Source of the DNA: Gammaproteobacteria bacterium
Lineage (GTDB): Bacteria > Pseudomonadota > Gammaproteobacteria > UBA4575
Assembly (NCBI GenBank): GCA_965205275.1
Contig: OZ242168.1
Location: 756,068 to 820,067, forward strand
Direction of reading: 5' to 3'
DNA: 64,000 nt
Shown here: one piece after another, positions 1,386 to 20,677 of the stretch
Layout of the letters: each line of letters opens with the position of its first letter
Position numbering within the stretch: the first letter of the stretch is position 1
Notes under the pieces: generated by a model
Seen by the model: the letters and a program-made list of their open reading frames with translations, nothing else
Told to the model about the DNA's origin: nothing
Database searches by the model: none
Program-made: the position numbers and the translations under genes

Positions 1386-1455
1386 CAGCGGATATGTGTT
1401 CGAGGCAATTCTCTGGGATAGGTCCGGGCTTAAGGAATAAATTATTCAGGCCGGC

Positions 1456-2465: not shown

Positions 2466-2852
2466 TTACAAACTGCTTATAACCTTCTTCAATTTTGCCT
2501 GTACCTGGTTTGCTATATCGCCTAATTCCGGATTATGAATCGCCTGCATGGAAGCAATCGGGTCTACTGCAGAAACTTCCACTTTCCCACCCTCAATTTC
2601 CTGAACGACTACATTGCAGGGCAGCATTATTCCTATCTTATCTTCAGCCTGCAGTGCCTTGTATGCAAAAGGAGGATTGCATGCACCTAAGATTCGGTAA
2701 TTCTGATAATCCACATCAAGCTTTTTTTTCAATGTAGCCTTTACATCAATGTCTGTTAAGACGCCAAACCCTTCCTTTTTCAACTCATCAATGACCTTGT
2801 CAATGGCATCTTCGAATGAATTTTCCATAGTTGTACTGAAGTAATAGTCCAT
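2466..2852 (-). CDS. DUF302 domain protein
   Basis: 128-aa ORF at the distal end of the cbb3 oxidase gene string. Recalled similarity to the DUF302 family; not verified. Confidence 0.5.
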   Translation of the reverse strand: MDYYFSTTMENSFEDAIDKVIDELKKEGFGVLTDIDVKATLKKKLDVDYQNYRILGACNPPFAYKALQAEDKIGIMLPCNVVVQEIEGGKVEVSAVDPIASMQAIHNPELGDIANQVQAKLKKVISSL

Positions 2853-2937
2853 TGCCTTTCACCTTCCTTTTTTAAACTGGCATTTTTTAAACACTTTCCA
2901 AGCAACTCAAAATATGCAGATACATTATTATATTTGA

Positions 2938-3714
2938 CTAGCGTTTTGAGACAACATCGCGGCTTGACACAAGTTTGGCGGAATTTCCCCATTGTGTACG
3001 TTCATGATTCACTACAGCTGCCACCTCTTCATCGTTTAGCTGCCCGCTAAACCCGGGCATTGGTGACAGGTAACTTGTACCTTTAATTACTTTATCTTTT
3101 AATCCGTCTAATACAATTTCGATATGTTCACTTGCATCTTCTGCAAGTACGGGCTGGCTGCCCTTGAGAGGGGGGAAAACTCCCGGCAACCCTTCTCCGT
3201 TACTCTGGTGGCAAGATGCACAATAATTTCCATACACCTGTTCGCCAAGTTGTACCCAATCGTTATCGGCCATTATTTTCTCTGCGTTTTGCTCGATAGA
3301 ATCGGAAACAACCGCCAATATATCCCGCTCCCCGTAAGCCAGTGTAAGATAGCCCACTGCCCATGAAAAAATGATCAGGCAAAGGACCCATGCCCAAGTG
3401 GGTATAGGTACAGGATTCTCAATCCTGATGGGCTCAAACTCATCACCGACGCGGCTGCTGTATGCATTAGCCAATACCGATACATCACCTGAAATTACAT
3501 CGCCATTACGCATTCCATGCAAAGATATACTGGGCCCATTACTGACAACAAAATGAACTTCCCGTTCGCTCGTAACGGCACTATCTTCCACTACGCAGAA
3601 CCGGAGCGTATGACGACCGTCAGACAATTCTCTTGAATCAAGCTTGAATTTTTCCGGCGGGTCCAAAACCTTATATGGTTTTGTGTTCTTATCAAGATAA
3701 ACTTCTATTTTCAT
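2938..3714 (-). CDS. membrane-anchored mono-haem cytochrome c, CcoP-like terminal gene of the cbb3 operon
   Basis: 258 aa. Single CxxCH (CASCH) followed by a GLPGVFPPL-like class-I cytochrome c region. Central hydrophobic helix. Sits in the ccoP position but is not di-haem. Confidence 0.5.
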   Translation of the reverse strand: MKIEVYLDKNTKPYKVLDPPEKFKLDSRELSDGRHTLRFCVVEDSAVTSEREVHFVVSNGPSISLHGMRNGDVISGDVSVLANAYSSRVGDEFEPIRIENPVPIPTWAWVLCLIIFSWAVGYLTLAYGERDILAVVSDSIEQNAEKIMADNDWVQLGEQVYGNYCASCHQSNGEGLPGVFPPLKGSQPVLAEDASEHIEIVLDGLKDKVIKGTSYLSPMPGFSGQLNDEEVAAVVNHERTQWGNSAKLVSSRDVVSKR

Positions 3715-3726
3715 TTTTCCAGGATA

Positions 3727-3933
3727 TCAGTCATCTAAAATCGTGCGCTTAATATGGGCTTCCGATGTTTCACCCGGCCAAATCATGCAAAATATTGCAC
3801 GATAAAATGCATAGACAACCACTGCTGCAGCAATCAGAACAACAAGCAGTGCCGGAATTGAGATTTCCGAGGTACCTATGTTTCCACAAAGACTCAGAAA
3901 TAATTCGAAATAGTAAGTGGCTTTATCTATCAT
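3727..3933 (-). CDS. small membrane protein, CcoQ/FixQ-like
   Basis: 68-aa ORF with one hydrophobic helix, lying between the ccoO and ccoP-like genes. Confidence 0.35.
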   Translation of the reverse strand: MIDKATYYFELFLSLCGNIGTSEISIPALLVVLIAAAVVVYAFYRAIFCMIWPGETSEAHIKRTILDD

Positions 3934-3935
3934 CG

Positions 3936-4499
3936 TTAACGATTTACCTGTTTAAGTGATTGCAGATAAGCCACAAGGGCCAGCACATCTTTTGTAGCTA
4001 CGATTTGCATTCCTTCAGGTTTCAAGCCTTCAGGTACGGGAACTACAACATCTCCTTTGCCTGCTTGTTTTTTTTCTATGAAATACCACGGGTAACCTGG
4101 CATCACCGAACCGGCTACAACGGCTCTGGGGTTGTAGAGGTGGATCAGATTCCATACCTCGCTTGGCTGGCGCACACCTACATTGGACAGATCAGGCCCG
4201 GTGCGCTGCGTTCCAAGCAGTGGCGGATCCTCCATCGCATAGTCGCCCGCAACTGAGCCTCTTCCATACGGCGCATCAACGGGCAAATCCCGCACCAGTT
4301 GCGTATGACAAAACGCACACCCTTCTTTTATATACAGTTCCCGTCCACGCTGCTCTTGTGTTGTTCGCTTTTCGATATTTGCCAATGGTAAAGTTTTCTG
4401 TGCCTCAAAAGCAGGAAAAACTGCGATAATTAAGGTAAGCACAAAAAACCCCAAAGCCGATACGGCTACCAGTACCCGATGATCTGTGTGCAAACTCAT
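3936..4499 (-). CDS. ccoO: cbb3-type cytochrome c oxidase mono-haem subunit CcoO (FixO)
   Basis: N-terminal TM helix, then ELYIKEGCAFCHTQLVR...RTGPDLSNVG...HLYNPR, matching CcoO. Probable start at the internal Met giving an ATGA overlap with the ccoN stop; the ORF track extends to 4553. Confidence 0.75.
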   Translation of the reverse strand: MSLHTDHRVLVAVSALGFFVLTLIIAVFPAFEAQKTLPLANIEKRTTQEQRGRELYIKEGCAFCHTQLVRDLPVDAPYGRGSVAGDYAMEDPPLLGTQRTGPDLSNVGVRQPSEVWNLIHLYNPRAVVAGSVMPGYPWYFIEKKQAGKGDVVVPVPEGLKPEGMQIVATKDVLALVAYLQSLKQVNR

Positions 4500-5884
4500 G
4501 TGTGAGCTTCTTTTAAAACCGTGATCTCTCGCCGCTGTGGCCGCATTTCCCACAGATTAATGACGAATACGATATGGCTTGCGACCATCATCAAACCTCC
4601 TACAGACCGCCATAACCACATCGGTGCAACCGCATGTACCGAGGCCATGAACGACTCGCCGGCTACCCATGAAATGCCTTGCAGTATGCCTGCAATTGAA
4701 ATTGCAATGACATACATGCTGCCGCCCACAAATGCCAGCCAGAAATGCAGACCCATCATACCCTCGCTAGGTGAACGTCCCGTTATGCGTGGGAGCAATC
4801 CATATATCGCCCCCCAGATACCGAATGCGACAAAGCCATACATAGCAAGATGAGAGTGTCCGACTGTAAAGTTGGTAAAATGCCAGTAAATATTTGCTGA
4901 CCGGAAAGACTCTATGGTTCCTTGAGTTGAAGACAGCGCATAACCCCAGATTCCCACCAGCAGAAAGATGGTTGCGTAGCTTTTACGGACAAGATGCCAC
5001 GACCCTTTTGCGGTCATGAAAAAATTTCCGAAACCCGACCACACAGGCACCATCATACCAACACTGAACAGAATTGCGGTCGTTTGTATCCACCAGGCGA
5101 CAGGGCTGAATATAAAGTGGTGTGCACCGATCAGCGTGTAGAAAGAAAGGCTCGTCCAGAATCCCAATACACCAAGGGAATAAGAATAAATAGGCTTGCC
5201 CAGCATACGTGGAAGCGCATAGTACGTAATCCCCAGAACCAGGGGTGTAAACCACATGCCCACACCGTTATGCATGTAATACCCTTGTGTGACTATATTG
5301 CCTATCCCTCCTTGATAAAATGGCAAGTACCCTACCGTGTAGAGGATTGTCAGCCAGCAAAATGCACCCAATATGTACCAATTAGAAACATAAATTTCTT
5401 TCGGTTTGCGGGTTGCCACCGTTTGATAACAGGTGTATGCATTCAGCAACAGCCCGACCGCGTACAGCACGGCTATAGGCCAGATGAGCTCCCGATATTC
5501 CTGGGGACCCCGGGTGATCCCAACGGATAACGTAATGACGCCTGAAGCAATGGCAACGTTCCAAAGATGCAAGGCGATATAGGGTAATCGAAAACTGCAT
5601 AATTTCACTTTCGAGGTTCGTGACACAATAAACAGTGCAAGACCTACTAGTGACATGGATGACCAGGCAAACATCACTACATTTGTATGAATCGGCCGTA
5701 TACGGCCAAAAGAAAGGCCGCTGTATGCTAAAAAATCAGGCCAGTACAGTTTAAATGCAGCAAGTAATCCGTAAACGGTACCCACCATCAGCCAAACTGC
5801 AGACCACGTAAAGTACGAATATATTAGCTTGACCGTTTCCGGCTCAAGACCGGACGGCGGGGTGTTTGATTCATTATTCATCAC
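4496..5884 (-). CDS. ccoN: C-family haem-copper oxidase catalytic subunit (cbb3 CcoN-like)
   Basis: 462-aa polytopic membrane protein. LSFGRIRPIHT and GAHHF motifs as in CcoN. Gene order N-O-Q-P. Confidence 0.7.
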   Translation of the reverse strand: MMNNESNTPPSGLEPETVKLIYSYFTWSAVWLMVGTVYGLLAAFKLYWPDFLAYSGLSFGRIRPIHTNVVMFAWSSMSLVGLALFIVSRTSKVKLCSFRLPYIALHLWNVAIASGVITLSVGITRGPQEYRELIWPIAVLYAVGLLLNAYTCYQTVATRKPKEIYVSNWYILGAFCWLTILYTVGYLPFYQGGIGNIVTQGYYMHNGVGMWFTPLVLGITYYALPRMLGKPIYSYSLGVLGFWTSLSFYTLIGAHHFIFSPVAWWIQTTAILFSVGMMVPVWSGFGNFFMTAKGSWHLVRKSYATIFLLVGIWGYALSSTQGTIESFRSANIYWHFTNFTVGHSHLAMYGFVAFGIWGAIYGLLPRITGRSPSEGMMGLHFWLAFVGGSMYVIAISIAGILQGISWVAGESFMASVHAVAPMWLWRSVGGLMMVASHIVFVINLWEMRPQRREITVLKEAHT

Positions 5885-6516
5885 GATCTCTTTTCGTGCT
5901 TTGGGCGCATTTCGCTGCGGATATTCATCGCTAACTGCAAGTAGCTCTGGTCACTTGAATAATGTTGTCTGAGTGTACCATCAGGGCCCACTAAATAGAA
6001 AAGGTCAGGATGAATGACCTCATAATTCAAATTATCGTCGTCATCTATGGCTATTGCAGAAAATGCATTAAATGTACTTAAGGCACTTTTTATTTCGTGC
6101 AGCGACCCGGTTAGTCCAACGATACGATCATCAAAGCGGGCAACATACTCCCTCAATACTTCGGGCGTGTCGCGCTCGGGGTCTACTGTTATAAATATTG
6201 GAGTCAGAAAAGCTGAGTCTCCGGTTTTATCCAGTTCCAGCAAAGCTTTTGACATTACGTTCATTTGCAACGGGCAAACATGGGCGCAGCTTGTAAAACC
6301 AAAATAAACCAATGCCCAGTTACCCAGGATATCCTGCCCAGTTGTCTCTATATTTGCATGGTTAATCAGGCTGAAATCTATTGTAGGGTCTGCATTTTCA
6401 TTGTGATGCAAAAAAGCAAACCCTGCCGCACCAAATGCCACAACTAGACTTATAACGACCACCAGCATGAACCGAAGCAGAGAATCAGGTTCTTTTTGCA
6501 GTTTTTTACCTTGCAC
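5881..6516 (-). CDS. SCO1/SenC family copper chaperone
   Basis: 211 aa. N-terminal TM anchor, thioredoxin-like CAHVCP (CxxxCP) motif. Stop overlaps the ccoN start (translational coupling). Confidence 0.75.
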   Translation of the reverse strand: MQGKKLQKEPDSLLRFMLVVVISLVVAFGAAGFAFLHHNENADPTIDFSLINHANIETTGQDILGNWALVYFGFTSCAHVCPLQMNVMSKALLELDKTGDSAFLTPIFITVDPERDTPEVLREYVARFDDRIVGLTGSLHEIKSALSTFNAFSAIAIDDDDNLNYEVIHPDLFYLVGPDGTLRQHYSSDQSYLQLAMNIRSEMRPKHEKRS

Positions 6517-6775
6517 AGAAATAACCTTAACAAAAACTGTACGTATACAGATTATTGTCTCAAAATATTGTTTTTATAAAATACTCCATACCAAAATAAC
6601 GAATAAAGGCTTGCTGTACATTCCTGATTTCAAGCAGTCATTCAGATCGATATCTTGATGTATCCCAATACATATGTCCCGAAAATAAAAGGAAGCCGTT
6701 GCATTCCGGTCGAGTGAATTTCAGGGGCGCACAATTACAGACCTGATTGCCAAGTCCGGCAAACAAGCTGCATAC

Positions 6776-7187
6776 TCATTCATTGCTACGAAGTGCACGG
6801 GTTTTAGTTCTGGCTTCACTGGCACGGACACTGGCTTTAGAAGCAACGGCTTCCCATTCGTTGGCAATGACCTCACATACGTGTCTCAGCAGCACGGGCA
6901 ATAGTTTCCCATCCGCGAGCAATGGCTTCCCATTCGTTGGCAATGACCTCACATACACGAGGATTGGTTCTAGAGGCGCGGGTCAAGGCTTCATCTTTAA
7001 GAGCCTTGGTCTCAGTTTCATGGGCAATGGCTTCCCATTCATGGACAACAGTTCTCCATTCACTAGCACATTTAAAATTGCCACAACCGGAAAGCATTAA
7101 ACTAGTAATGAGCAACGCACTAGCAAGCGTGATACCTTCCCTGTAATTCATATTTGGATCCCTGTTTGGTTTAGGGCGTGTTAACAC
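6776..7187 (-). pseudogene. repeat-containing lipoprotein (EWEAIA repeats); reading frame broken between repeats
   Basis: Signal peptide plus lipobox (LMLSGC). Three copies of a ...VIANEWEAIA... unit encoded across two overlapping frames (ORFs 6873..7187 and 6776..6958). Confidence 0.4.
6840..7075. repeat. tandem DNA repeat: two near-identical units about 76 bp apart plus a degenerate third
   Basis: ttcccattcgttggcaatgacctcacatac occurs at about 6851 and 6927. A degenerate copy lies at about 7035. Confidence 0.6.
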
Positions 7188-7988
7188 TAACGTAACGCAT
7201 CGACGATGAGCGCGAAGACAATGAATCCGAGGAATACCACGTCGAGTTTCTCGAATCGCGAGAAGACACGACGGAACCCCTTCAATCGACGGAATAACCG
7301 CTCGATTTCATTGCGCCGCTTGTACATCTCACGGTCGTATTCCCAAGGCTCGACCCGCGTTCGCAATGGCGGTACCACTGGCTCATACCCCAGCGCCAAG
7401 GCCAGTTGTCGAGTCTCGTTGCCTTCGTACGCGCGGTCCATGATCAGTGAGGGAGTATCGTGCTGCTGACCAAGGCGATTCAGCAACTTACGCCCTTCCG
7501 GGGCATCGTGGGCTTGTCCCGGCGAGAGCGAGAACGTGATGGCGGTTCGAGCATCTGCGGCAACCATATGAATCTTGGTGGTCCAGCCGCCGCGAGAGCG
7601 GCCGATGGATTGGGGGCCGTTTTTTTTAGCGCCCCCGTCCCATCGGGATGCACCTTCACAATAGTGCTGTCCATCGACATCGCCTCGAGTTTGATGCGCA
7701 CGATCTGTTCTCGCTGCAGATGCTCGAATACTCGGTCGAGCACTCCGTTCTTCGACCAACGGTTCATTCGGGTATAGATGGTGTGCCAGTTGCCAAACCG
7801 TGTAGGTAACCCTCGCCATTTGCAGCCCTGTTCGGCGACATACAGTATGGCGTTGAGTACTTGGCGGTTCGAAAGGCTGACGTTGCCGCGCTGCACCGGG
7901 AGATGTAGCGCGATGCGTTCGTATTGGGCTTGGGTCAGTTCCATCCTTGGAGGATACCATAACTGTGCCCATTAGTGTTAACACGCCC
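7174..7988 (-). mobile_element. IS5 family (IS427-group-like) insertion sequence, copy A, 815 bp
   Basis: Perfect 17-bp terminal inverted repeats GGGCGTGTTAACACTAA / TTAGTGTTAACACGCCC. Flanking TA on both sides. Two-ORF transposase. Identical to the copy at 19785-20599. Confidence 0.85.
7187..7944 (-). CDS. IS5-family transposase OrfAB
   Basis: OrfA (7480..7944) carries the IS5/IS427-type N-terminal domain (WRGLP...NRWSKNGV). The DDE-domain orfB continues in the overlapping frame (7187..about 7640). Programmed frameshift site not mapped. Confidence 0.75.
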
Positions 7989-8513
7989 TAGTCAATCAAG
8001 GGATACTGTACAACACGGCATAGAAGCCTGCACATCTAAATCCTGGCGCAGGTTTGCCTTGCGCACACACAAAATCATCCTGCCACGCAGTGATTGAGAT
8101 CTGAACCAAGGGGTACCTCAGCCTGCCTATCCCAGTGCGTCGTGAAAAGGCTGTACTGATTTATTCGGGCTAAGCTTGGAGTGGATGCCCGAGCGCCCTG
8201 TTACACGGCTTATCGTATATCCCTGCCGCCATCCGCTATCTTGATAGTCGCTGGAGCGAGGTTTTAATTTTTTGATTTGTATATTTACCAGGGCTATTTG
8301 ATGGTACTTTTTTACAATTAGACCGAGATACCGTTAAAAATATCGTCAAATTTTCTAGCTGCTAACACATCTTGTCGGATGTAAAAAACTAAGAAATATT
8401 TATAAACTGTTATTTGTATTATACTTTATATATGGTACAGGATTTTCTGACGTTGCCGGACTCGAACTTAAAGCACAAGTTATTATTATGTAGAATATTT
8501 TATTTATTCAATT

Positions 8514-8777
8514 TTAAACTATACCGACGAAAGTACCGACAAATTCAAATTTCTCCATTTGAAAATGACGCTCGTTCTCCTTTCTTAGCTGCCTGAACTC
8601 CCTTACATGGTCCGGCTCAAGCCCACTATAGTCCTTTTCCCAACGATAAAGTGTCGCTTCCGATATCCCCAATTTGCGGCACATACCGCCTATCGATGTA
8701 CCGCCCTCATGTGTCTTGACCGCGGCCACAACCCGTTCAGCCGAATAGCGCTTTCGTGCCATAATGCTCCTCCCCAT
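8514..8777 (-). pseudogene. IS3 family transposase OrfA remnant (3' truncated)
   Basis: HTH region ...GISEATLYRWEKDY... typical of IS3 OrfA. The ORF runs into unrelated AT-rich sequence. No orfB follows. Confidence 0.6.
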
Positions 8778-8885
8778 TCCAAGGAATCATCATGTCAGCT
8801 TTCGCACGCGGTCTGATACAAATTATGGGAAGACCACCAGGACCAATACATTATTGCCATTCAAATTGATTTATTAGGAGGGGGT

Positions 8886-9386
8886 ATGAAAATTAAACGA
8901 GCTGGTTGTATAGCAGTTACCCTAGGACTCATGTTGTGTACAAACGGCGTCTATGCCGAAAAGCCAAGTGACGCGGATGCACTCAAAGGAATAAATGAAG
9001 GCAATGTTATATGGGACGTAACTGTCGGAAGTCCAAGCAAACTTTTATTTTTATTAAAAGTTATTGAAGAAACATATGATGATCTTGAAAAGCAAAATGT
9101 AAAACCAGACATGGTTTTCTTATTTCATGGACCAGCAATGAAGTTAATTTCGACAAATCCATTGGATTTACCTCTCGATGAGGAAGAAGCCCATGAAGGA
9201 GTACTTGAGTTGATAAAAAAGATAAGCAAACTGCCAGGCGTCAAAATGGAATCGTGTTCAATAGCTGCACGCATATTGGACATTGACAACGACACCATCA
9301 TTTCAGGAATAAAGCCAGTTGGAAATACCTTTGTGTCGCAAATTGGTTATCAGAAAAAAGGGTATGCAATGATTCCAATTAATTAG
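8886..9386 (+). CDS. secreted DsrE/DsrF-like (COG1416-like) protein
   Basis: 166 aa. N-terminal signal peptide. C-terminal region ...VKMESCSIAARILDI...GYAMIPIN resembles the DsrE/YchN-fold family with a conserved Cys. AT-rich gene. Confidence 0.45.
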   Translation: MKIKRAGCIAVTLGLMLCTNGVYAEKPSDADALKGINEGNVIWDVTVGSPSKLLFLLKVIEETYDDLEKQNVKPDMVFLFHGPAMKLISTNPLDLPLDEEEAHEGVLELIKKISKLPGVKMESCSIAARILDIDNDTIISGIKPVGNTFVSQIGYQKKGYAMIPIN

Positions 9387-9402
9387 GCAGATATCCTGCC
9401 TA
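9384..9402 (+). terminator. possible hairpin at the 3' end of the DsrE-like gene
   Basis: taggcag-atatc-ctgccta, a 7-bp stem overlapping the stop codon. No strong U-tract follows. Confidence 0.2.
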
Positions 9403-9510
9403 CTGAACTTGATCTAGGTTTGGATGCGAAACACTCATGTCGGTTTCACATTGGAGGATTATGGTCCGCAAGCGATTCAGTGAATCGGAGATCACCAATA
9501 GCGTGTAACA

Positions 9511-9744
9511 TTAATTTTTTACGTCTGCTTCAATTGTAAATAGGCCAAGCACAATCATTAACATGGCTGCGTATGCTGCAGCTCTTGCTCCGTGGTAAAT
9601 AAATGTAGGTATTACAGCCATTAATAGAAGCGGTACATAAAATTTCAATATAAAAGCGACAGCAAATCTTTTTGCTCGCTTCAGTATTTGTGCCACCCTT
9701 CCTCTCTTAATACCCTTTAATATTTCTGCACGACTATCCCACAT
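9511..9744 (-). CDS. small hydrophobic membrane protein, hypothetical
   Basis: 77-aa ORF with two predicted TM helices. AT-rich. Confidence 0.3.
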   Translation of the reverse strand: MWDSRAEILKGIKRGRVAQILKRAKRFAVAFILKFYVPLLLMAVIPTFIYHGARAAAYAAMLMIVLGLFTIEADVKN

Positions 9745-9832
9745 TATGGGCGATCGATTGATCTTTCCCCCGTAACCCGATCCACTTTATGTGAGGGATT
9801 TTCCTATAATTTGAACCTTAGGAGGTCCCAAG

Positions 9833-10099
9833 ATGAAAGGCAAACGATTTACCGACGAGCAGATCATTTCGATCCTGAAAGAGCATGAGGCCGGCGCCAA
9901 AATGCCAGACCTGGTACGTAAGCACAATGTAAGTGAACAGAGCGTCTACCGCTGGAAGTCGAAGTACGCTGGTATGGAAGTCTCTGAGGCCAAACGCCTG
10001 AAGGAACTGGAGAGCGAGAACACTAAACTCAAACGTCTACTGGCGGATACGATGCTGGATAATGCGGCATTAAAGGAACTGGTCGGAAAAAAATTTTAA
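9833..10099 (+). CDS. IS3 family transposase OrfA
   Basis: 88 aa. HTH (...[14 protein letters not shown]...) and leucine zipper. Confidence 0.85.
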
Positions 10100-10134
10100 C
10101 GCCCGCTGCCCGTCGCCGGGGTGTTGAGCATCTG

Positions 10135-10911
10135 GTGACGGCCAACCTTGCCAGTCAGCGGCGGGCGTGTCGATTGGTGGGCTTATCTCGCTCAGTCATG
10201 CAGTATCGACCGAGACCTAAGCACGATAAAGTCCTGTGCCAACGACTGAAAGAGCTGGCCACGCAGTATCCGCGTTATGGCTACCTGATACTGCATGGAC
10301 TATTGGCAGCGGAAGGTCTGGTTATCAATCGCAAGCGCACCTACCGACTGTATTGTGAGGCGAATCTACAGGTGAGAACACGACGACGGAAGAAGCTGAT
10401 ACGTCCCAGGATACCAATGATGATACCGGATGGGCCGGGGCAACGTTGGTCACTCGACTTTGTCTCTGACCAGTTGGCTTCAAGTCGGCGCTTTCGGGTG
10501 TTAAACATCATCGATGACTACAGCCGGGAATGTATTGGACAGATTGTAGATACCTCAATATCCGGTCTTCGATTGGCAGGGTTTCTGGAAGAGATCGGAA
10601 CGCTTCGTTCCTTACCAAAAACTATTGTGTGCGACAACGGTAGCGAACTGACCAGCAAGGCGATGTTCTTCTGGTCACAACAAAGCGGTGTGAAACTGCA
10701 TTTTATTCAACCGGGCAAACCCACTCAGAATGCGTTCGTGGAATCGTTCAATGCCCGCTTTCGAGATACCTGTCTCAATCAACATTGGTTTCGCAATCTG
10801 CCTGATGCACGATGCATCATCAATGACTGGCGACGCCACTATAACTATATACGACCACACAGCTCACTTGGCTACGTACCACCGGCTGTATTCGCACAAC
10901 AAGCAGCATGA
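10135..10911 (+). CDS. IS3 family transposase OrfB (integrase/rve core)
   Basis: Contains an HTH_21-like N-terminus, the DDE region (...WSLDFVSD...) and the C-terminal [10 protein letters not shown] motif. Expressed by a -1 frameshift from orfA. Confidence 0.85.
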
Positions 10912-11018
10912 TATGATAATTTTTCCCTCACCAGGAATGGATCTAATTCAGGGGAAAGATCACGATATCAAAAGCAGTGAAGGTATAGGGTCGGTGGAGG
11001 CATAGTTTGGGGTGATTG

Positions 11019-11441
11019 CTAGGGCGTACCTGAATGCAAACTAAAAAATAAAAACAGCACAACCCCTGCTAAGATTACCACCCAAAATACAAGCTTGGGC
11101 AACACTTCATACAGTTCTTGCATCTGCATGTTTTTTTGATGTTGCTCCAGTTCCCGTGTCGCCGTATCTAGCTCGTCATTCAATGTATTTGTTATCCTCG
11201 TCGCCTCACGCAGTTGCTTCGAGTACTTCTCCGCTGCTTCTGGACCTATTTCCTTCACAAGCCTTTTCATCACTCCCCCATCCGCCTCCGCGAGCTTGCC
11301 CATATATTCCGAATCCATTTCCCCTAAGAGCTCCATTGTTTTTTCTGGACCCATTCGCTTCAGGAACCTTACCGCTTCTTCTAAATCCATTTGCCTCAGA
11401 AGCTTGATCACTCGTTCCGAATCGCCGTATTCCTGTTTCAT
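11019..11441 (-). CDS. hypothetical coiled-coil protein with C-terminal TM anchor
   Basis: 140-aa ORF in the AT-rich island. No recognisable motif. Confidence 0.3.
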   Translation of the reverse strand: MKQEYGDSERVIKLLRQMDLEEAVRFLKRMGPEKTMELLGEMDSEYMGKLAEADGGVMKRLVKEIGPEAAEKYSKQLREATRITNTLNDELDTATRELEQHQKNMQMQELYEVLPKLVFWVVILAGVVLFLFFSLHSGTP

Positions 11442-12012
11442 ATGTCACCTTTGGCACACCGATAATACTTTGTATTGTGGTCAGCGCTATTACTGATTGG
11501 TAAGTATCCAAGCTTAACCTCAAGGTCAGTAGAAATTTTGAGTGTTGATTTACACATAAAACCGGCCCTGGTTTAGAGTGAACCCTTGGTAGTGGAATAG
11601 CGTGCTTGTGGCTCTCCATGCTTCTAGCGCACTATCAATCACTGGATAACCGGCTTCCTGTTCCTGAAACCATCGTTCCTACTCTCTCTCAAAACCCAGT
11701 GCGTACTAGGGGGTCTTGATACATGGAGAATCGTATCTATTTAAACTTTCTAGGTTGTTGTGCAACCATGTCTAAGAAAACCGGGTATGATTCCTGACAT
11801 CTGATCCACATATTTATCTATACCTACTTTGACCTGGCTCCATTCATCTGGAGTAATCGTATTCAGGTTTTTAGGCTTAAATCCTTTATGTATCGTGACA
11901 GAACGCAGTTTCTCTTGTTTTCTAAATGCCTTACACTCTGCAGCATTAGTAGGGGTATGTAATATAAAGATATCAGTATCAAATGCTGCCACCGACCAAT
12001 ATCTTTTAAGTC

Positions 12013-12483
12013 CTAAAAAGCTTCTTGAAAACAGGCCAGATGCTTCTGTTGTAAACGACGTACAAGGACCCCCGTACATTCCAGATAAGCTATCACTTCT
12101 TGCTCTTTTGCCACCACAACGGCATCTAATCCAAGATCTACTGTTAGTTTATTAAATATCTCCTTCTTAGTTTCGTTTACCCTCCATTCGCCATTCTTAT
12201 ACACGATGAATTCATGAACATCCTCAAATGAAATGCCCTCTTTATCCAAATTGACCACGCTAAACAAATCTTCATTGGTAAGACTATCGTTCAAATTATC
12301 TTCAACCAGTTCCTTTAAAGGCCATATTTGATCTTCGTACGTCTTCTCAAAATTGTTGAATATAGTAGTGCCTATATGGGTGTGTACGGGATGTTCTCCA
12401 GCCTCCACAAGGACCCCGATTTTGCTTCTCGGTTGAATCTGAAACTCTGTAACTTCTGGAATACCCGTTACGTGTTTTAGCAA
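12013..12483 (-). CDS. hypothetical protein
   Basis: 156-aa ORF. May continue into the overlapping ORF 11750..12079 through a frameshift. Confidence 0.3.
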   Translation of the reverse strand: MLKHVTGIPEVTEFQIQPRSKIGVLVEAGEHPVHTHIGTTIFNNFEKTYEDQIWPLKELVEDNLNDSLTNEDLFSVVNLDKEGISFEDVHEFIVYKNGEWRVNETKKEIFNKLTVDLGLDAVVVAKEQEVIAYLECTGVLVRRLQQKHLACFQEAF

Positions 12484-12906
12484 TGTCCCGGATCCGCTGC
12501 TTCAATGCTACCTGCTCCACCCTGCGTGACCGGTACACCCAGGTCGAACGAGGCAGACGCAGCACCCCGCATGCCCGTCGGCCACTCACCCCAAAACAGT
12601 CCATCAACCAGCGCGCCAGTTCCTTCAGTCGCGCCGGCCTCAAAGCTTTTTTCGAATCACCTCCTGTAACATCTGACGGTCCAGACTCAACTCCGCCACC
12701 ATCTGCTTCAAACGACGGTTCTCATCCTCCAGCTCCTTCAAGCGGCGCACCTCAGAGGGCGCCAACCCCCCGAACTTCTTCTTCCACCGGTAAAACGTCT
12801 GCTCCGATATCCCCAGCTTGCGGACCACTTCCGCCACACTCATTCCAGCCTCATGCTGGTGCAGCGCATAGGCGATCTGCTCCTCGCTAAACTGCGACTT
12901 CTTCAT
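12347..12906 (-). pseudogene. IS3 family element remnant: intact orfA plus the N-terminal part of orfB only
   Basis: OrfA (12640..12906) has the HTH ...GISEQTFYRWKKKF... OrfB starts (MRPARLKELARWL...RACGVL...) but similarity ends at about 12480. No DDE core. Confidence 0.7.
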
Positions 12907-13048
12907 GCAAAAACCTCCTCACCCCACAGGGGCATCTTAACGAGAATTTTCACACTATGCCTGGACCAGTTTATGGGGAGAAGACCAAGTAGCCGCCACC
13001 CCGGTGTCTCCTTACGGAGTTATAGTCGCTGGTGCCATTGGGCATCAT

Positions 13049-13312
13049 TCATTTTTCGCGCTCGTCCAAGCGGTCGAGCATTTTATCAATGAGTATCGTG
13101 GCTTGCTTGCGGGTTGTGCCCTCCAGATCCGGGTAATCCTCGTCGAGTTGCATTGCTAAGCTCATAATTTTGGTCTCCTGTTTCCTGGTTATCTTGTCAT
13201 GATGCGTCTCGTCCAGCGCATGCTCCCGGCCCCTTGCACGTCCTATCAAATAGCTGACCAGAAACAGGGAGCCCACGAGAACCCCTGCAAGCAAGTACAC
13301 ATAAATGTCCAT
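13049..13312 (-). CDS. hypothetical protein with N-terminal TM helix
   Basis: 87-aa ORF. Confidence 0.3.
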   Translation of the reverse strand: MDIYVYLLAGVLVGSLFLVSYLIGRARGREHALDETHHDKITRKQETKIMSLAMQLDEDYPDLEGTTRKQATILIDKMLDRLDEREK

Positions 13313-13473
13313 AGGTCCCCTTTTGTTTAATTCCTGTGCCTAATTAGTCATGCAAACTCTTTTCCGGTCGCAGGATGCCATATACGCCTCAAAAAAGGCC
13401 GGTCTGAATCTGACATAGTACTCATCCCCATACGCTCGCCTGAGCGAAGTAGCAGCGATATAGCATTGACATC

Positions 13474-13968
13474 CTATTTCCCGCAAGCAGATAAAGCCTT
13501 TCTGATAGGACTGGCGGAACCTATTAGCCCAAAAAATACAGTACTCTCTAACATTCCAACATCGGTTCTAAATACCGCTTCTTCCTTTCCTGTAACCAAA
13601 GCATTGGCAAACCGTTTCGCATACTCACCAACAGCCATTAGAATATTAGGTCGGAGAACCCAATTCTCACTTACCACTTTCCCCTTATCTATTCTGTACT
13701 TTACAGGCACTAACATCTTCTCCGGAATGGGGATATGCAAATAGTCTTTTACCTGCATCGTCACTGACAGTTCCTTACTACTGTCAATAAAGCAATAAAT
13801 ACCAACCCAAGCGCGATCTGTGGCGCTCCTCATACCTGTCCTCACCGCATCAAACTCCAATGTAGCATCTACATTTTTCTTGCCGGTTATCTCATCCGCA
13901 GTTTCTCTATATTTCCACTCTGCGGAAGCATTACCAAATACCAGCATCATGGCCAGCGCAAAAGCCAA
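13474..13968 (-). CDS. hypothetical secreted protein
   Basis: 164-aa ORF. N-terminal signal-like hydrophobic segment ending ...ASA. Confidence 0.35.
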   Translation of the reverse strand: MAFALAMMLVFGNASAEWKYRETADEITGKKNVDATLEFDAVRTGMRSATDRAWVGIYCFIDSSKELSVTMQVKDYLHIPIPEKMLVPVKYRIDKGKVVSENWVLRPNILMAVGEYAKRFANALVTGKEEAVFRTDVGMLESTVFFGLIGSASPIRKALSACGK

Positions 13969-14236
13969 TCCTGGTCATGAGCGCGGTGTCTCTCTCTCAT
14001 ATTGCTATATTTGATTTGCCAGGTTCAATTTTTCAATACTATCGTAAATAAGTCCCTAAAAATTTCTTAGTATCTAGTGACTGGTGTTCGTCCCCTCTTT
14101 GTGGCCCGTGCCGGCCGGAGCTATTCGCCGTCAACACTGATTCATCCCAAAGCGCAATGAACCACCTTCCTCCTGGGACTCGAAAAATGTATTTAGTCTA
14201 TTGAATTTTATACATATTATTAAAATCAATTTTCAA

Positions 14237-14560
14237 TTATACCGCCACAAGTACCGACAACATTAAATTTGGGGAATTATATATTTTACTTGCCAATCGA
14301 TTTGTGCGGTCTGTGCACGCATCCGCATTTACACGCAGGTACTCCTCGATAAACATGTCTGTGTGCTTTGCCACCCAATGTAAAACATATTCTGGATCTG
14401 CATTGTGCTTTCTTTTGATCATGAAATAAGCGTTGTCAGACCAGTCCGGCTCCCACGTTATAATATAACCCGATTCACTGGTGGCATTATCTGTTACTCT
14501 TTTCCTGTAGCTGGTGTGTATATTAAATTTGTCATGCTCCAACAACAGTGTCAGATACAA
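14237..14560 (-). CDS. hypothetical protein
   Basis: 107-aa ORF. Its 3' end runs into direct-repeat copy B. Confidence 0.3.
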   Translation of the reverse strand: MYLTLLLEHDKFNIHTSYRKRVTDNATSESGYIITWEPDWSDNAYFMIKRKHNADPEYVLHWVAKHTDMFIEEYLRVNADACTDRTNRLASKIYNSPNLMLSVLVAV

Positions 14561-14651
14561 CGCGGGAGAAACTAAGTTGACGGGCGATGGATAGTATAAT
14601 CCCGCATCTTTCTGAATCGCCCCGGGTTTACCGGAGACTGTTTAGTTTGAG

Positions 14652-15547
<896 letters not shown>

Positions 15548-15548
<1 letters not shown>

Positions 15549-15868
15549 TACCTCGGTCGGCGGTCGAACTCCGCCTGGGCGAAAAAAGCCGCTGCCTTTC
15601 GCAAGATCTCATTCGCCCGCTTCAGTTCGCGTACTTCACGTTCCAGTTCCTTGAATTTCTGAGCGTGATCCGTCGTGAGACCGGACCTCCCTCCCTGATC
15701 AATCTCCACTTGTCGAATCCACTTTCTCAGTGTTTCCGGCGTACAGCCGATCTTTCCAGCAACCGATTGCGTTGCAGACCAACGCGATGAATGTTCATGT
15801 TCGCTGGTGAATACCAATCGAACCGCTCGTTCCCGTACTTCCGGGGCATAGACAGGTTGTGTTTTCAT
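15548..15868 (-). CDS. IS3 family transposase OrfA
   Basis: 106 aa. HTH (...IGCTPETLRKWIRQ...) and coiled coil. Confidence 0.8.
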
Positions 15869-16022
15869 AGGCTAATCCTCTCAAAGGTTTTAGCCTCCGA
15901 CAATACCGGGGCGATTCACTTTCACTGAGGAGCAATGTACGAGAAGTGAGCATATACCTATTGTCTGAGACTGCTGTCACTAAAAAGGCAAAACCCATAA
16001 CTGTTCAACGATTGTTGACCAG

Positions 16023-18149
16023 TTAGCGACCAATGCAGCAATGCTTGAACTTCTTTCCACTACCACAATAACAAGGGTCATTACGCCCTATCTTCGGTTT
16101 ACGTTTCATCTTTCCAGACTTCTTTGCAGCCCACCCTTCTGCTCTACGCGTCATCACTGGATCAACTTTCCACTTACCAACCAGTTCTGTACCCAATAGA
16201 ACAGATCCCTCTGGTGTTAAGGCAAGGCCGAACCAACTGTTAGCCCGCTCTGTATATTTCCTAAATTCGCAGTGCTGCTGCAGCCTAGACTCTACCCTGC
16301 TGTACGAGTCTCGGCTGCAGTGGATAGTCAAGCCAGAAGATAATTCTGAAATACCAATGACCATGTTGTGAAAGCTCCCATCTTCACCACATCGTTTCAA
16401 CACTTCTTCAGTGTATTCATTGATCTTTTTAACTGTACCCTCGCTTAGCTCCAACAACATGAAACCAAGATTGATTGCTACCGGCTCCGCCTTATACTCA
16501 ATTTCAGAAATGATACTTTCAAACCTTGTTCCAGCGAACCGGGTCAATATCCCATCCGGCGTCTCACAACCTGGAATGCCTAAACGCCTTACTGACATTG
16601 CAAGATCGAGATCCGATGACACATCATCAGCGATCTCCACTAGATCCATATTATTTTCAAACCACAAATTCCGTTTTAGGTGGTACGCTAGAACCGCATG
16701 CTCATGGTTTGTCATAATCTGATTACTGTAGCGAGCTCGAAAACTAAGGTAACTAAATAGCCTCAACGGGGAAGCCAGCATTTCGGTGACAGTATCTAGT
16801 GTAAAGACATCGGTAACGAGTGGCGGCACGATTTGCTCAGTTGATTTAACTTCTAAGAAGTGTCGAGTCTGAAAGGCCAAGGCCGGGTAGTGATCAGCTA
16901 CAACCGCTATAGGGAAGATGGTGTGAGGAGATGCAGACAGTAGGACTGGAATTCCGTCTCCGCAACTCAATTTAACAGCGGGATCGCAAAGCAATTCTGC
17001 ACACAAAAATGCCTGATCAACTGCAGTCTGTACTGCCTTTTTAAAGTCCTCTCGCAATACTTGGTCGTTACCTCTCCGCGCTTCGAGTGTCAGCCGTTTC
17101 GACTTCGCTTGCACGATAATGACACGATCCCCAAGTATTACTAAAACATCTATCTCTCCTAAGATTTCACCCTTTGTTTTTTGTATTTTTACGTTCTGGA
17201 AAACTCTCTCGGACCAAAATACATGTGACAACCTTTCGGCTGTGAACGATTCCGTGAAACTCCCTCGATGGCTAAACGCATCAGGTGTATATGAAGCATC
17301 GGCACACATCCAGTAGAACGGAGTCTCATAAAATGCCTCTGTTAGACCGTGGTATTGTAAAAGAATGTACTCATCGGCTCCATATTGGATGAATGGATAG
17401 GCATACGCTGCATTGAACGCACTTAATGAAGTAAAAGTGGAATTTCGCTCGTTTTCAGGCAATACAAAGGCTTTTACAAATGCCCTTACATCATCAATTG
17501 GTTGACCAATATAGCGAGAAAGTTCTTCACAAGAAAAAATAAATCCGGGGAACAGAGTCCATTCCTCAGGGGGAGTACCCCTCAAAGCATCAAGTGCTAC
17601 ACAAAGCCGTTGACTCAAAATTTCGGCAATACCTTGGCAAACAGATCTGCCTATATTCAAGCGGAGATTTTTGTTCTTTAGAAGCCAATCAGAATCTGCT
17701 TCGTATTTGCGAGGAGCAAGATCATGGTACTGAAAGGGATAGGCTGATTCTCCACCATAAAAGATTGGTTCGCGGAGGAATTGCCCAAACGTGTATTGAT
17801 CAGTATTGGATGAGACAACACTATCAGTACCAAGGTGGCCCGAAGGAGGTAGCATTTTTTGGTGGAGTTCTTCCAATAAGGTTTCGGACCGCTGAAGATA
17901 GTGGGAAAGAATCTCAGGTTCTGGAAGAGAAAAGTCTATCGGACCGCGCATGGTGAGACCGATAAGTGTTGTGATCTCAGTTCGGATCAGACGCGACTGT
18001 GAACGCATCCTATTTAAATCTTCGGGAGACAGAACATCTGCGAAATTAACAGCTGTATCACGAAAGCATATATAGGCAATGGTGTGAATAAATCCCTTTG
18101 AGATACAAAGGGAAGCCAATTCATTAAAAACAGCCTGCTCGGTGCGCAT
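16023..18149 (-). CDS. large hypothetical protein with a NERD/PD-(D/E)xK-like core and a C-terminal SEC-C zinc-binding motif
   Basis: 708 aa. GEIDVLVILGDRVIIVQAKSKRL resembles the NERD / restriction-endonuclease-like D...(E/Q)xK core. The extreme C-terminus DPCYCGSGKKFKHCC is a SEC-C motif. Gene is AT-rich relative to its surroundings. Confidence 0.45.
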   Translation of the reverse strand: MRTEQAVFNELASLCISKGFIHTIAYICFRDTAVNFADVLSPEDLNRMRSQSRLIRTEITTLIGLTMRGPIDFSLPEPEILSHYLQRSETLLEELHQKMLPPSGHLGTDSVVSSNTDQYTFGQFLREPIFYGGESAYPFQYHDLAPRKYEADSDWLLKNKNLRLNIGRSVCQGIAEILSQRLCVALDALRGTPPEEWTLFPGFIFSCEELSRYIGQPIDDVRAFVKAFVLPENERNSTFTSLSAFNAAYAYPFIQYGADEYILLQYHGLTEAFYETPFYWMCADASYTPDAFSHRGSFTESFTAERLSHVFWSERVFQNVKIQKTKGEILGEIDVLVILGDRVIIVQAKSKRLTLEARRGNDQVLREDFKKAVQTAVDQAFLCAELLCDPAVKLSCGDGIPVLLSASPHTIFPIAVVADHYPALAFQTRHFLEVKSTEQIVPPLVTDVFTLDTVTEMLASPLRLFSYLSFRARYSNQIMTNHEHAVLAYHLKRNLWFENNMDLVEIADDVSSDLDLAMSVRRLGIPGCETPDGILTRFAGTRFESIISEIEYKAEPVAINLGFMLLELSEGTVKKINEYTEEVLKRCGEDGSFHNMVIGISELSSGLTIHCSRDSYSRVESRLQQHCEFRKYTERANSWFGLALTPEGSVLLGTELVGKWKVDPVMTRRAEGWAAKKSGKMKRKPKIGRNDPCYCGSGKKFKHCCIGR

Positions 18150-18390
18150 TTATCAATGATACTTTCGTAGAAAATCAAATCTAACGGTTCGTCAGTAGAG
18201 CAAGACAACTTCATTCACACTAGAATCGAGAGTGAAATTTTCTTTTACAGTTGTGGTCGCAGTATTCCCCGAAGAATCATAACTCCTTATCCTTGTTCTA
18301 TTTTGATACTTACTTTATGGCCAATAATCTATCATTCCTAACCCTATACATTTGTAGTTCAAGATCATTGAAAGCTCTTTATTTGGACAG

Positions 18391-18999
18391 CTACTGGCCA
18401 TCGGCCAGATCCATTCCTGCGGCAGAAAACAACTGAAGCATGCGGCCAATCTCGGTAGGCGCCAGAGTTGTCGTCAACTGGGCCTGAATCTTGGCAACCA
18501 TTTCATGTAACGTCAGAATAGTGATTCGATTACCTCCTAGTGCATTGTGAAAAGGTAGGTGATTCTCCCAAATACTCTTCTCACCCTTGCAGTGTGTAAC
18601 TGCAGTAACATAGGTAAATCGATCTTCGCCCGTAGCATCCTTTATAGCCTTAAGAAAAGCTTCCGACCACTTTGGAACCGTTAATTCACGGAAAGCTCTC
18701 CATGCATCCCGACCTCCAAGGTTCTTCTTTTTTTCGATCGCGTCAATTGCGGAAGCGGGATTGAATCCTTCTTGCCAACTCTTGCAGCTGACAGCCATAA
18801 CTTTTTGCTCACCTTCTTTCTTTGGATGGTATCCAAGGACATCAATATCGCTGTGATTAGAATCCTGTTTGCTGACAAAGTCCGGATGGTCTTTGCGTGG
18901 CAGAAATTTGATGTTGTGTTGCACAAAATAGCCCTTGTGGACAAGGTACTCCTCCACAATCTGCTCGAGGATATCTTCCTTGGTTGCCAACTTAGTCAC
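18391..18999 (-). CDS. hypothetical protein, possible PD-(D/E)xK-fold nuclease
   Basis: 202 aa. SDIDVLGY...GEQKVMAV fits a D-x(n)-ExK arrangement. Weak call from motif only. Confidence 0.3.
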   Translation of the reverse strand: MTKLATKEDILEQIVEEYLVHKGYFVQHNIKFLPRKDHPDFVSKQDSNHSDIDVLGYHPKKEGEQKVMAVSCKSWQEGFNPASAIDAIEKKKNLGGRDAWRAFRELTVPKWSEAFLKAIKDATGEDRFTYVTAVTHCKGEKSIWENHLPFHNALGGNRITILTLHEMVAKIQAQLTTTLAPTEIGRMLQLFSAAGMDLADGQ

Positions 19000-19337
19000 C
19001 CTCAGAATAATTCATCTACTTTAGACTTTATCAAAAACAGCTTGGATAATTTACAAATTTTGTCTAGTGGACATCAGACATTTCTGTCGTTTGCTAAAGT
19101 TGACACATGCTTCCAGATAACTTAAAAAAACTTAGTCAAAGGAGTTTCTGGACCACTAGTGTCTTCTCCTTATGGGGAACTATAAGAACTCGAGTTAAGC
19201 AAGCTTATATCGTTGCCATGTGACGGCCACAAAGATTTGATTATAGTTTAGACTCGCGAAAAGCAATCCAAGAAAGGACATGCTGGAAGTCATTAGACCG
19301 GCCTGCGCATCAGAGCCAGAATTGAAACAATTGCCGA

Positions 19338-19784
19338 ATGGGTAAACAGAAGCACAACCGACAGCGCAAAAGGCAGCCAGTTGCCCTGTGTGCACTCTGC
19401 GGAAAGATCAAAAAGTTATGCAAATCGCATATCGTTCCGAAGTCCTTTATTCGGGAAGTGCGTGCTCACTATAAACAATTGCACTGGTATGACCTTAGGA
19501 AGAAACAAAAACCGATATACACGCAGGATGGATGGAAAGAGTACCTTCTGTGTAATACCTGTGAGCAACGTATCGGGCAATGGGAAAAGGTGGTGTGCGA
19601 AGATCTGCGTGGTGATGGTAAAGCCAGCGCGACTTGGAAAGAAGTTTCGTACGACGGTCCAATTTTGATTCCACGAGGTGTCAAACGACCCACGGGTTAC
19701 TACCTGAAAATGGAAGGCTGCGATTACGACTCGTGGCGGCTGTTCCTGCTATCATTGCTATGGAAAATGGACAAATCAAGACTA
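19338..19784 (+). pseudogene. HNH-like zinc-finger protein gene, 3' end replaced by IS insertion
   Basis: N-terminal C-x2-C ... SHIVPKS ... C-x2-C is a ββα-Me/HNH-like arrangement. The last roughly 12 codons of the ORF (LGRVNTNVTHRR) are encoded by the inverted repeat of IS copy B. Confidence 0.45.
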
Positions 19785-20599: not shown

Positions 20600-20677
20600 T
20601 AGACGGCCTGTTGAAAAAGTCCTTTTGCATAGGCAGTTTGGTAGAATTGAAGGAGTAACTTCAATCACAGGAATTCT

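Follow-up and report, generated by a model that had tools for sequence, protein, structure and literature searches.

Two direct repeats in a gammaproteobacterial genome as probable relic arm-site modules of tRNA-targeting islands

Results

The DNA analysed is a 64-kb stretch (the window) from a genome that forms a single 2.1-Mb contig. The collections contain no close relative of it (next-best SCO1, 55% identity). A repeat search of the window reveals two copies in direct orientation on the plus strand, repeat A at 8508-8552 and repeat B at 14226-14270, which are 45 nt long and 82% identical; no third full copy is present in the 64 kb. Both had been recognised in a preliminary description of the locus and are real, but the match of about 40 of 47 positions given there is too high and the coordinates are 1–4 nt off: the strings listed comprise 44 nt each (8509-8552 and 14227-14270) and are identical at 36 of 44 positions. 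A 9-nt block, GGACTCGAA, which A and B have in common in the same register (8458-8466 and 14176-14184), had been missed. A 23-nt core pattern matches twice in the window, with 0.00 matches expected (100 shuffles), and the local alignment of A and B scores 55, compared with 22.4±2.5 for shuffled sequences. Two further matches, a third GTACCGACAA (47781) and GGATTCGAAC (51129), were rejected as chance occurrences within coding sequence.

Next to repeat A lies a truncated remnant of an IS3-family orfA (8553-8885, minus strand), identified by HTH_Tnp_1 (E=1.3e-14, residues 7-70 of the ORF at 8514-8777). As described previously, the repeat adjoins the truncation, the HTH_Tnp_1 similarity breaking off no more than ∼15 nt from it. 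The window contains no other copy of this remnant, of which bases 8713-8885 are 98% conserved in the relative L064. Repeat B overlaps the 3′ end of an orphan ORF, also in agreement with the earlier description, covering the stop of a 107-aa ORF, and the nearest IS end is 340 nt away. Between the repeats, the reported DsrE-like gene and IS3-family elements were found. The proposal that the repeats set off an AT-rich island does not hold: the interval has a GC content of 0.458 (0.427 without the IS pieces) against a window mean of 0.512, but the adjacent flanks are equally low, at 0.460 (1-7157) and 0.441 (15919-19782). Exact-protein look-ups of three window ORFs and of P0001 and P0121 returned no record.

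Two relatives, L064 and L065, span parts of the region, neither of them reaching the tRNA-like cores A and B described below. In L064 the block from DsrE to ORF164 is joined to other DNA on the side of repeat B and is devoid of the 3.3-kb IS block; the homology ends at ∼13980. To the right of repeat B, homology to L065, in which no att module was found, ends exactly at IS3c, an element flanked by a CTTTC repeat. The CTTTC repeat at first seemed to show that repeat B, ORF107 and the NERD gene form one continuous stretch, but does not establish it, since the L065 homology stops at IS3c. The interior block has a paralogue in the same genome, with a second DsrE copy at 98%.

The 64-kb window contains no intact integrase gene and no tRNA gene. 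A frameshifted P4-like integrase fragment of ∼60 codons (∼residues 70-120) is located at 25655-25830 on the plus strand, abutting IS256. It consists of the two best six-frame matches to the N-terminal profile, which are adjacent and colinear and correspond to profile positions 72-101 (E=0.035) and 94-120 (E=0.21); a 45-aa piece of it received no Pfam call. An integrase N-terminus read by eye in 8213-8290 (KIADGG...) scored ∼1 bit against the integrase profile and is not claimed.

A genome scan with an 18-base core yielded 62 loci. Because the scan pattern came from A and B, independent evidence is provided only by the flanks, the spacings and the neighbouring genes, and not by the 18 bases of the core. 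The 21-nt core (TACCGnCnnAAGTACCGACAA) recurs across many Proteobacteria, including Acinetobacter, Burkholderiales, Variovorax, Magnetococcales and uncultured Gammaproteobacteria, and the half-sites of the module form a direct pair, (A/G)TACCGnC, 12 nt apart. Two fixed settings are observed, an attL type and an attR type. In the attL type the core precedes a P4-like tyrosine integrase gene by 30–80 nt, and a complete tRNA gene is found ∼147 nt away on the other side. The T-arm of this tRNA gene is found at +139 to +157 in 24 loci, 16 of which have an inverted half-site at -30, and the profile of this class (class L) adds L013 and L014, giving 26 attL-type loci. A 400–450-aa integrase gene begins immediately left of the motif in 19 of the 26, and all three adjacent integrases tested contain the Arm-DNA-bind_3, Phage_int_M and Phage_integrase domains. 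The attR type (class R) comprises 14 loci with neither a tRNA gene nor an adjacent integrase; they have a T-arm fragment only, at -61 to -65. Full tRNA 3′ ends with CCA are observed at the class-R loci L018, L042, L038, L028 and L063, and the cargo on the right is variable, e.g. HsdR, an AbiEii-like ATPase or ParA. At L036 an attR-type end is accompanied by an integrase on the minus strand ∼5 kb rightward; together they make up a complete small island of the polarity expected. A metagenome search with the specific 23-base pattern gave one more attR-type site (L063) and nothing closer, while a viral scan revealed no module, its sole match being a coding KVPT tandem repeat. In a tblastx comparison of window positions 6.5–26 kb with all loci only IS similarity was found, so the cargo is not shared with the other loci. 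Copies of the repeat thus occur elsewhere tied to element ends, so that the first of the two refuting conditions set in the preliminary description fails.

The neighbourhood of insertion sequences raises the question of whether the repeats are IS or transposon ends (an IS3-family terminus, Tn7-like ends or a MITE), since repeat A abuts a truncated IS3 orfA and the region is rich in IS elements. This explanation is very improbable. The repeats are direct, and an inverted partner is absent from the 64 kb; they are not an IS3 terminus, so that the second refuting condition of the preliminary description fails as well, and show no similarity to the IS3c inverted repeats TGAATCGCCCCGG. Moreover, the point in orfA that repeat A adjoins is an internal truncation and no IS end, repeat B is at the distance from the nearest IS end given above, and the companions of the motif elsewhere are tRNA genes and tyrosine integrases; transposases are not among them.

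At site A, the half-sites of the repeat fall within 8520-8542 (TATACCGACGAAAGTACCGACAA), and exactly 64 nt from this arm pair lies a tRNA-3′-end-like fragment, core A (8447-8467, minus strand; reverse complement GTTCGAGTCCGGCAACGTCAG), with the T-loop block GGACTCGAA at 8458-8466. The distance matches that of the 14 attR-type loci. In core A, 13 nt (GTTCGAGTCCGGC) are identical to the T-loop and 3′ T-stem of tRNA-Leu(UAA), genes for which flank the attL-type loci L024, L039 and L050. No acceptor strand or CCA is recognisable, and the window contains no second copy of core A. A class-R profile built from other genomes only matches 8445-8550 with E=1.6e-12. To the left of core A, a class-L profile, likewise from other genomes only, matches 8291-8395 (E=5.9e-6). 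This stretch includes a degenerate attL-type arm-site pair at 8327-8350 (plus strand; GATACCGTTAAAAATATCGTCAAA) and an inverted half-site at 8299-8309 (plus strand; TGATGGTACTT), which aligns to the conserved inverted half-site of the profile at -30. The motif score of 8327-8350 is 13, the third best in the window on both strands, after A and B with 19; all others score below 11. The attL-type arm lies 129 nt from the T-loop core, compared with a class-L range of 139–157. As read from these matches, site A is tripartite (L-arm/core/R-arm), as expected where two tandem islands join, and the same layout, in its tandem-junction form, is found at L053. The orfA remnant has taken the place of the island interior beside arm A.

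Site B is similar in geometry. Its half-sites fall within 14238-14260 (TATACCGCCACAAGTACCGACAA), and the distance from the arm pair to a T-loop-like fragment, core B (14165-14184, minus strand; reverse complement TTCGAGTCCCAGGAGGAAGG), with GGACTCGAA at 14176-14184, is again exactly 64 nt. With E=8.3e-12, 14175-14274 matches the class-R profile, to which other genomes alone contributed. Only 9 nt of core B are tRNA-like, and beyond this T-loop block it is unlike core A; again no acceptor strand or CCA is recognisable and no second copy occurs in the window. The Rfam tRNA model, run at permissive thresholds on both core regions, gave no tRNA match; the fragments are too short. Left of core B, a possible very degenerate attL-type arm, B′ (14038-14062, plus strand), has the top motif score (7) in the range predicted from the class-L spacing, a score reached by 1.1% of equal-sized window ranges; it has no match to the class-L profile and is a weak candidate.

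Outside the search pattern 27 positions are free to vary. At these positions the repeat flanks match the class-R locus L018, from another genome, at 17–21 of 27; B agrees with L018 at 21 of 27 and with A at 19 of 27. Since B is closer to L018 than to A, the two repeats are members of a family and not products of a local duplication. A chance likeness of two AT-rich intergenic stretches, for which one could cite that the blastn-short E-value of 0.005 (101-nt query) is unremarkable when scaled to a whole-window self-comparison, has a negligible probability. It is contradicted by the zero matches among the shuffles and the T-loop block in the same register 62 nt upstream, and is already refuted by the profile E-values of ∼1e-12 and the same spacing in 14 unrelated loci.

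Discussion

With a probability of about 0.8, we interpret each repeat as the arm-site module (for repeat A, the P-arm) of an attR-type att site from a tRNA-targeting island of the P4-integrase family. What the comparison shows directly is a sequence family with fixed spacings, its linkage to integrase and tRNA genes, and its polarity. The suggestion of att-like junctions in the preliminary description is thereby supported, each repeat being an arm-site module 64 nt from a T-loop-like core. Its other suggestion, an unrecognised mobile element with captured cargo, is not supported: the element type is well known, a tRNA-targeting island moved by a P4-family integrase, and both ends are of the attR type with unlike cores. 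A single island needs one attR and one attL, so the repeats are not the two ends of one element. In the orientation of the window each repeat has the island interior on its right, so that both would be the far ends of two different islands or of successive members of an array. A matching attL end (a core in a complete tRNA gene, an attL arm and an integrase, in direct orientation) is absent from the 64-kb window, and the integrase fragment at 25655-25830 is on the opposite strand; the partner attL end could either be located beyond the window or have disappeared.

The attL-type loci resemble KplE1/CPS-53 of E. coli (IntS, TorI, argW) in the order of tRNA gene, attL and integrase on the same strand, in arm-type repeats that are placed between the 3′ end of the tRNA and the start of the integrase gene and overlap its promoter, and in a second set of arm sites at the far end beside a displaced core (PMC2951348). 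The integrases adjoining the module also share the three-domain build. In contrast, the half-sites here are (A/G)TACCGnC, whereas the P′ arm sites of KplE1 have a TAAA motif (PMC2951348), and the window keeps DNA sites only, without integrase, excision factor or tRNA gene. Integrase N-terminal domains bind arm-type sites, and in tRNA-integrated elements the arm sites of attL overlap the integrase promoter (PMC2951348). From this precedent, the position of the half-sites and the presence of Arm-DNA-bind_3 in the adjacent integrases, we infer that these domains bind the half-sites, and they are the predicted binders of TATACCGnCnnAAGTACCGACAA. In a working element, the N-terminal Arm-DNA-bind_3 domain would bind the two direct half-sites and the catalytic domain the T-loop core 64 nt away, and bending of the AT-rich spacer would allow one protein to bridge arm and core, building the recombination complex. 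At the attL end, the same half-site pair, together with an inverted third site, precedes the integrase gene at a distance of ∼147 nt from the T-arm of the tRNA, and there it probably also represses the integrase promoter. In the window, integrase genes, tRNA genes and partner cores would since have been lost and the region broken up by insertion sequences.

It is conceivable, though unlikely, that the protein reading the half-sites is the excision (directionality) factor of these islands, of the AlpA/TorI type, and not the arm domain of the integrase. Even so, the repeats would count as att modules. In KplE1 attL, paired sites 12 nt apart, the spacing of the half-sites here, bind the excision factor TorI and not the integrase (PMC2951348). 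Against this stands the occurrence of the motif on both arms, with an inverted copy beside the integrase start. The motif is, in addition, conserved from Acinetobacter to Variovorax to Magnetococcales along with a conserved integrase N-domain, whereas excision factors are usually far more variable.

A different arrangement, somewhat doubtful but not far-fetched, is that the 5.7-kb stretch between cores A and B represents one decayed unit of a head-to-tail array, built by successive integrations (accretion) and with L-arm/core/R-arm junctions, in which repeat A is part of this unit and repeat B of the one that follows. The island between the repeats in the preliminary description would then be right in a modified sense. 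The common orientation and identical 64-nt geometry of A and B, the clearly tripartite site A, which resembles junctions where islands integrate successively, and the same junction form at e.g. L053 agree with such an array, as do the weak L-arm-like B′ at the predicted place (p∼0.01) and the break in L064 homology just left of it. However, matching cores would be expected in an array at one tRNA, and those of A and B are completely unlike past the 9-nt block; there is no integrase remnant left of B′, which the class-L profile misses, and the interior block is joined to different DNA in L064 and has a paralogue in the same genome.

Displaced tRNA fragments mark island ends, and the distal boundary carries a 3′-terminal tRNA piece that starts in the T-loop (PMC4383910, PMC9897764 for the latter; PMC4383910 for the former). 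The class-R loci, ending in such a displaced piece, are like the islands in the Islander database and the tRNA fragment survey; the window cores differ in keeping only 13 nt (A) and 9 nt (B) of tRNA-like sequence, without acceptor stem or CCA, and would probably escape an endpoint search that relies on tRNA fragments alone. A described class of elements has retained att sites after loss of the recombinase (PMC5704250). A cis-mobilizable element (CIME), however, is flanked by matching attL and attR, whereas both window sites are of the attR type and their cores are unlike, and a helper integrase was not seen in the window. That A and B are still live, an Arm-DNA-bind_3 integrase elsewhere in the 2.1-Mb genome recombining their shared T-loop cores (GGACTCGAA), is quite improbable. 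If so, the 5.7-kb DsrE-bearing segment would be an integrase-less cis-mobilizable cassette, able to loop out or swap, which would go some way towards explaining why the genome contains another DsrE copy at 98%.

Under the preferred reading, the region comprises relic att modules in an IS-riddled, decayed island stretch, presumably inactive at present; they are relics unless an integrase elsewhere in the genome uses them. The biology is ordinary and the gain mostly housekeeping: the odd repeat is explained as relic attachment sites, and positions 7 to 26 kb of the window are marked as part of a decayed island region shuffled by IS elements. Of modest practical use is the module itself, with half-sites 12 nt apart and the T-loop 64 nt away at attR and ∼147 nt at attL, which could help to find the far ends of P4-type islands when fragment-based tools fail because the displaced tRNA piece is too short or has decayed too far.

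Direct repeats at sites A and B

The preliminary description had reported imperfect direct repeats, and these are indeed present. The strings quoted there are 44 nt each (8509–8552 and 14227–14270) and identical at 36 of 44 positions, and a repeat search of the window returns 8508–8552 (site A) and 14226–14270 (site B), 45 nt with 82% identity. The 23-nt core of the repeat, TATACCGnCnnAAGTACCGACAA, occurs in only these two places in the window, where shuffles expect 0.00, and local alignment of the A and B neighbourhoods scores 55, compared with 22.4 ± 2.5 for shuffled sequence. A second block, GGACTCGAA, is also common to both sites in the same register (8458–8466 and 14176–14184), 62 nt upstream of TATACCG. 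The AT-rich spacer from this block to the arm, i.e. the paired half-sites, is unrelated between A and B, and the likeness ends at 8552 and 14270. Chance similarity of A and B is excluded, as is the end of an IS or transposon.

Related loci in other genomes

A scan with TACCGnCnnAAGTACCGACAA of one genome per species yielded 62 loci, of which ∼17 are estimated from the size of the collection to be chance matches; about that many lie in unrelated coding sequence. The remaining loci lie between genes and separate cleanly into two classes, L and R. In class L (n = 24) a complete tRNA gene (Leu, Arg, Ser, Thr or Gly) follows on the right, its T-arm 139–157 nt from the motif, mostly 146–147 nt; 16 of the 24 loci also have an inverted half-site 29–31 nt left of the motif. 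A class-L profile added L013 and L014, and at 19 of these 26 loci a gene of 400–450 amino acids begins just left of the motif, reading away from it, with the N-terminus DGGG..YWR.DYR. All three genes tested contain Arm-DNA-bind_3, Phage_int_M and Phage_integrase, and the adjacent genes are P4-family tyrosine integrases. The layout is the known one of tRNA gene, attL and integrase gene, with arm-type sites lying across the integrase promoter (PMC2951348).

Class R (n = 14) comes without a tRNA gene or an adjacent integrase. Here a T-arm fragment is located 61–65 nt left of the motif and in many cases amounts to a complete tRNA 3′ end including CCA; right of the motif is unrelated cargo (type I restriction R subunit, AbiEii-like ATPase, ParA). 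Displaced tRNA fragments mark island endpoints (PMC4383910, PMC9897764), and class R has the appearance expected of an island's attR, or distal, end. One class-R end, L036, is followed ∼5 kb to the right by minus-strand sequence for an integrase C-terminal part, and thus has both ends of the picture. Together with the two class layouts this locus points to the island order, with the motif on the plus strand, of flank, core fragment, R-arm, cargo, integrase (leftward), L-arm and tRNA gene.

Four class-L loci from Gammaproteobacteria and Thermodesulfobacteriota MAGs (L024, L039, L047 and L050) have near-identical attL regions beside tRNA-Leu(UAA). The arm region is common to L013 (Magnetococcales), where no adjacent tRNA-Leu was found. 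No integrase is present at the attL regions of L047 and L050, so that integrase-less relics of this island family seem to be common.

Assignment of sites A and B

The class-R and class-L profiles were built from other genomes only. The class-R profile matches 8445–8550 (E = 1.6e-12) and 14175–14274 (E = 8.3e-12); the 18 core bases within these matches were the search pattern and are not independent evidence, unlike the spacing, the T-loop block and the flanks. The T-loop block is located at exactly −64 in both sites, and nothing tRNA-like is found to the right of either. These features support the first suggestion of the preliminary description, att-site-like junctions, and both repeats are best regarded as attR-type modules. 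Being both of attR type, they do not delimit one mobile unit in the canonical sense, contrary to the other suggestion made there, terminal repeats of an unrecognised mobile element. Over the 27 positions of the 45-mer not fixed by the search pattern, A and B agree at 19 and A and L018 at 17, whereas B and L018, from an uncultured gammaproteobacterium, agree at 21. Sites A and B are therefore two members of one subfamily and not duplicates.

The class-L profile independently matches 8291–8395 (E = 5.9e-6), aligning an inverted half-site TGATGGTACTT at 8299–8309 and a degenerate half-site pair GATACCGTTAAAAATATCGTCAA at 8327–8350. When both strands of the window are scanned with a gapped motif, this site ranks third after A and B, with no other close. 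Site A therefore consists of L-arm, core and R-arm, a layout expected at the junction of two tandem-integrated islands and also observed at locus L053. The candidate L-arm near B, B′ (14038–14062), is weak, with a motif score of 7 that 1.1% of equal-sized window ranges reach, and the class-L profile gives no match there.

The tRNA 3′ ends corresponding to the window cores (8447–8467 at A, 14165–14184 at B) would be GTTCGAGTCCGGCAACGTCAG and TTCGAGTCCCAGGAGGAAGG. Core A has GTTCGAGTCCGGC in common with the tRNA-Leu(UAA) genes flanking L024, L039 and L050, core B only TTCGAGTCC. Neither core runs on into a recognisable acceptor strand or CCA. The window contains no tRNA gene, no second copy of either core and no intact P4-like integrase. 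The sole integrase trace is a frameshifted P4-like fragment (25655–25830, plus strand; ∼residues 70–120, ∼60 codons), composed of the two best, colinear matches of the integrase N-terminal profile in six-frame translation (E = 0.035 and 0.21). It directly follows an IS256-family element (24306–25598) and lies on the strand opposite to that predicted from A and B. A tandem array, in which the core-to-core interval would be one decayed island, would account for the tripartite site A, but is doubtful given that the cores are unlike each other past the T-loop and that the integrase is missing.

The interval and its surroundings

The interval had been described as an AT-rich island. Its GC content is 0.458 (0.427 with IS pieces removed), against 0.460 in the left flank (1–7157) and 0.441 in the right flank (15919–19782), with a window mean of 0.512, and it does not stand out in composition. 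The gene content listed earlier is broadly right: an IS3 orfA remnant ending at ∼8553–8567, a secreted DsrE-like gene (8886–9386) scoring just under the Pfam threshold, an IS3-family element with orfA and orfB (9833–10911), a second IS3 remnant (12347–12906) and several ORFs without any family match. The DsrE-like gene has a 98% paralogue elsewhere in the same 2.1-Mb genome. In L064, a Logan contig from another sample (SRR26713618), window 8713–9672 (98%) is joined through 178 nt to window 12988–13982 (94%), and a 3.3-kb block with several orphan ORFs, an IS3 remnant and the IS407-like element is thus lacking; at ∼13980, just left of B′, the contig departs into unrelated DNA. The interior is therefore a rearranging block rather than cargo tied to A and B. 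In L064 (1–2123), a P63C gene and a giant adhesin-like gene adjoin the block from DsrE to ORF164.

Right of site B, a 708-residue NERD and SEC-C protein (16023–18149, minus strand; >2,000 homologues, 50–98% identity) has a 98% relative in the contig L065, in a defence-island-like setting. Its neighbours there, HipA, a UDG-family gene and CoiA-like genes, suggest a defence or stress module. L065 (97% identical) loses homology to the window, at its position 12231, exactly at the right end of an IS3-family copy (14613–15918). This copy has CTTTC on both sides and the look of a simple insertion, yet the homology ends there; its orfA/orfB overlap contains an ALIL pseudoknot, a programmed frameshift signal (15474–15590, minus strand; Rfam RF01497, 101 bits).

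Two direct, 100% identical 820-bp copies of an IS5-family element (7172–7991 and 19783–20602) bracket 11.8 kb with both att relics, in a layout like that of a composite transposon, and offer a substrate for deletion. The right-hand copy interrupts a gene that in L065 encodes 275 amino acids. Just left of the first, a small lipoprotein-like ORF (6873–7187, minus strand) harbours in-frame 21/39-nt repeats (GCAATGGCTTCCCATTC...) at 6842–7061. A ParE-family toxin gene (23007–23294, plus strand; Pfam E = 1.4e-17) in an IS-rich stretch fits cargo of island or plasmid origin. A high-GC block (26015–31128; 0.60–0.63), unlike the rest of the window in composition, encodes an autotransporter beta-domain protein and large fn3/cadherin/SWM-repeat proteins.

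Proposed mode of recognition

The loci constitute a sequence family with two fixed geometries and a defined polarity, associated with tRNA genes and integrase genes. Heterobivalent tyrosine integrases (PMC2951348) provide a framework for a mechanism. By analogy, the N-terminal arm domain of the integrase would bind the half-sites and its catalytic domain the T-loop core, while bending of the AT-rich spacer may allow one protein to bridge arm and core; at attL the same half-sites would sit over the integrase promoter. Alternatively, the half-sites could be read by an excision factor of the TorI type, which in KplE1 binds paired sites 12 nt apart. We prefer the integrase as the probable reader because the motif is present on both arms, is also found inverted beside the integrase start, and in distantly related taxa is conserved along with the integrase N-domain.

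Elements of this kind are well known, and the repeats in the window are degraded members of it. The conserved att module may be useful for finding island ends.
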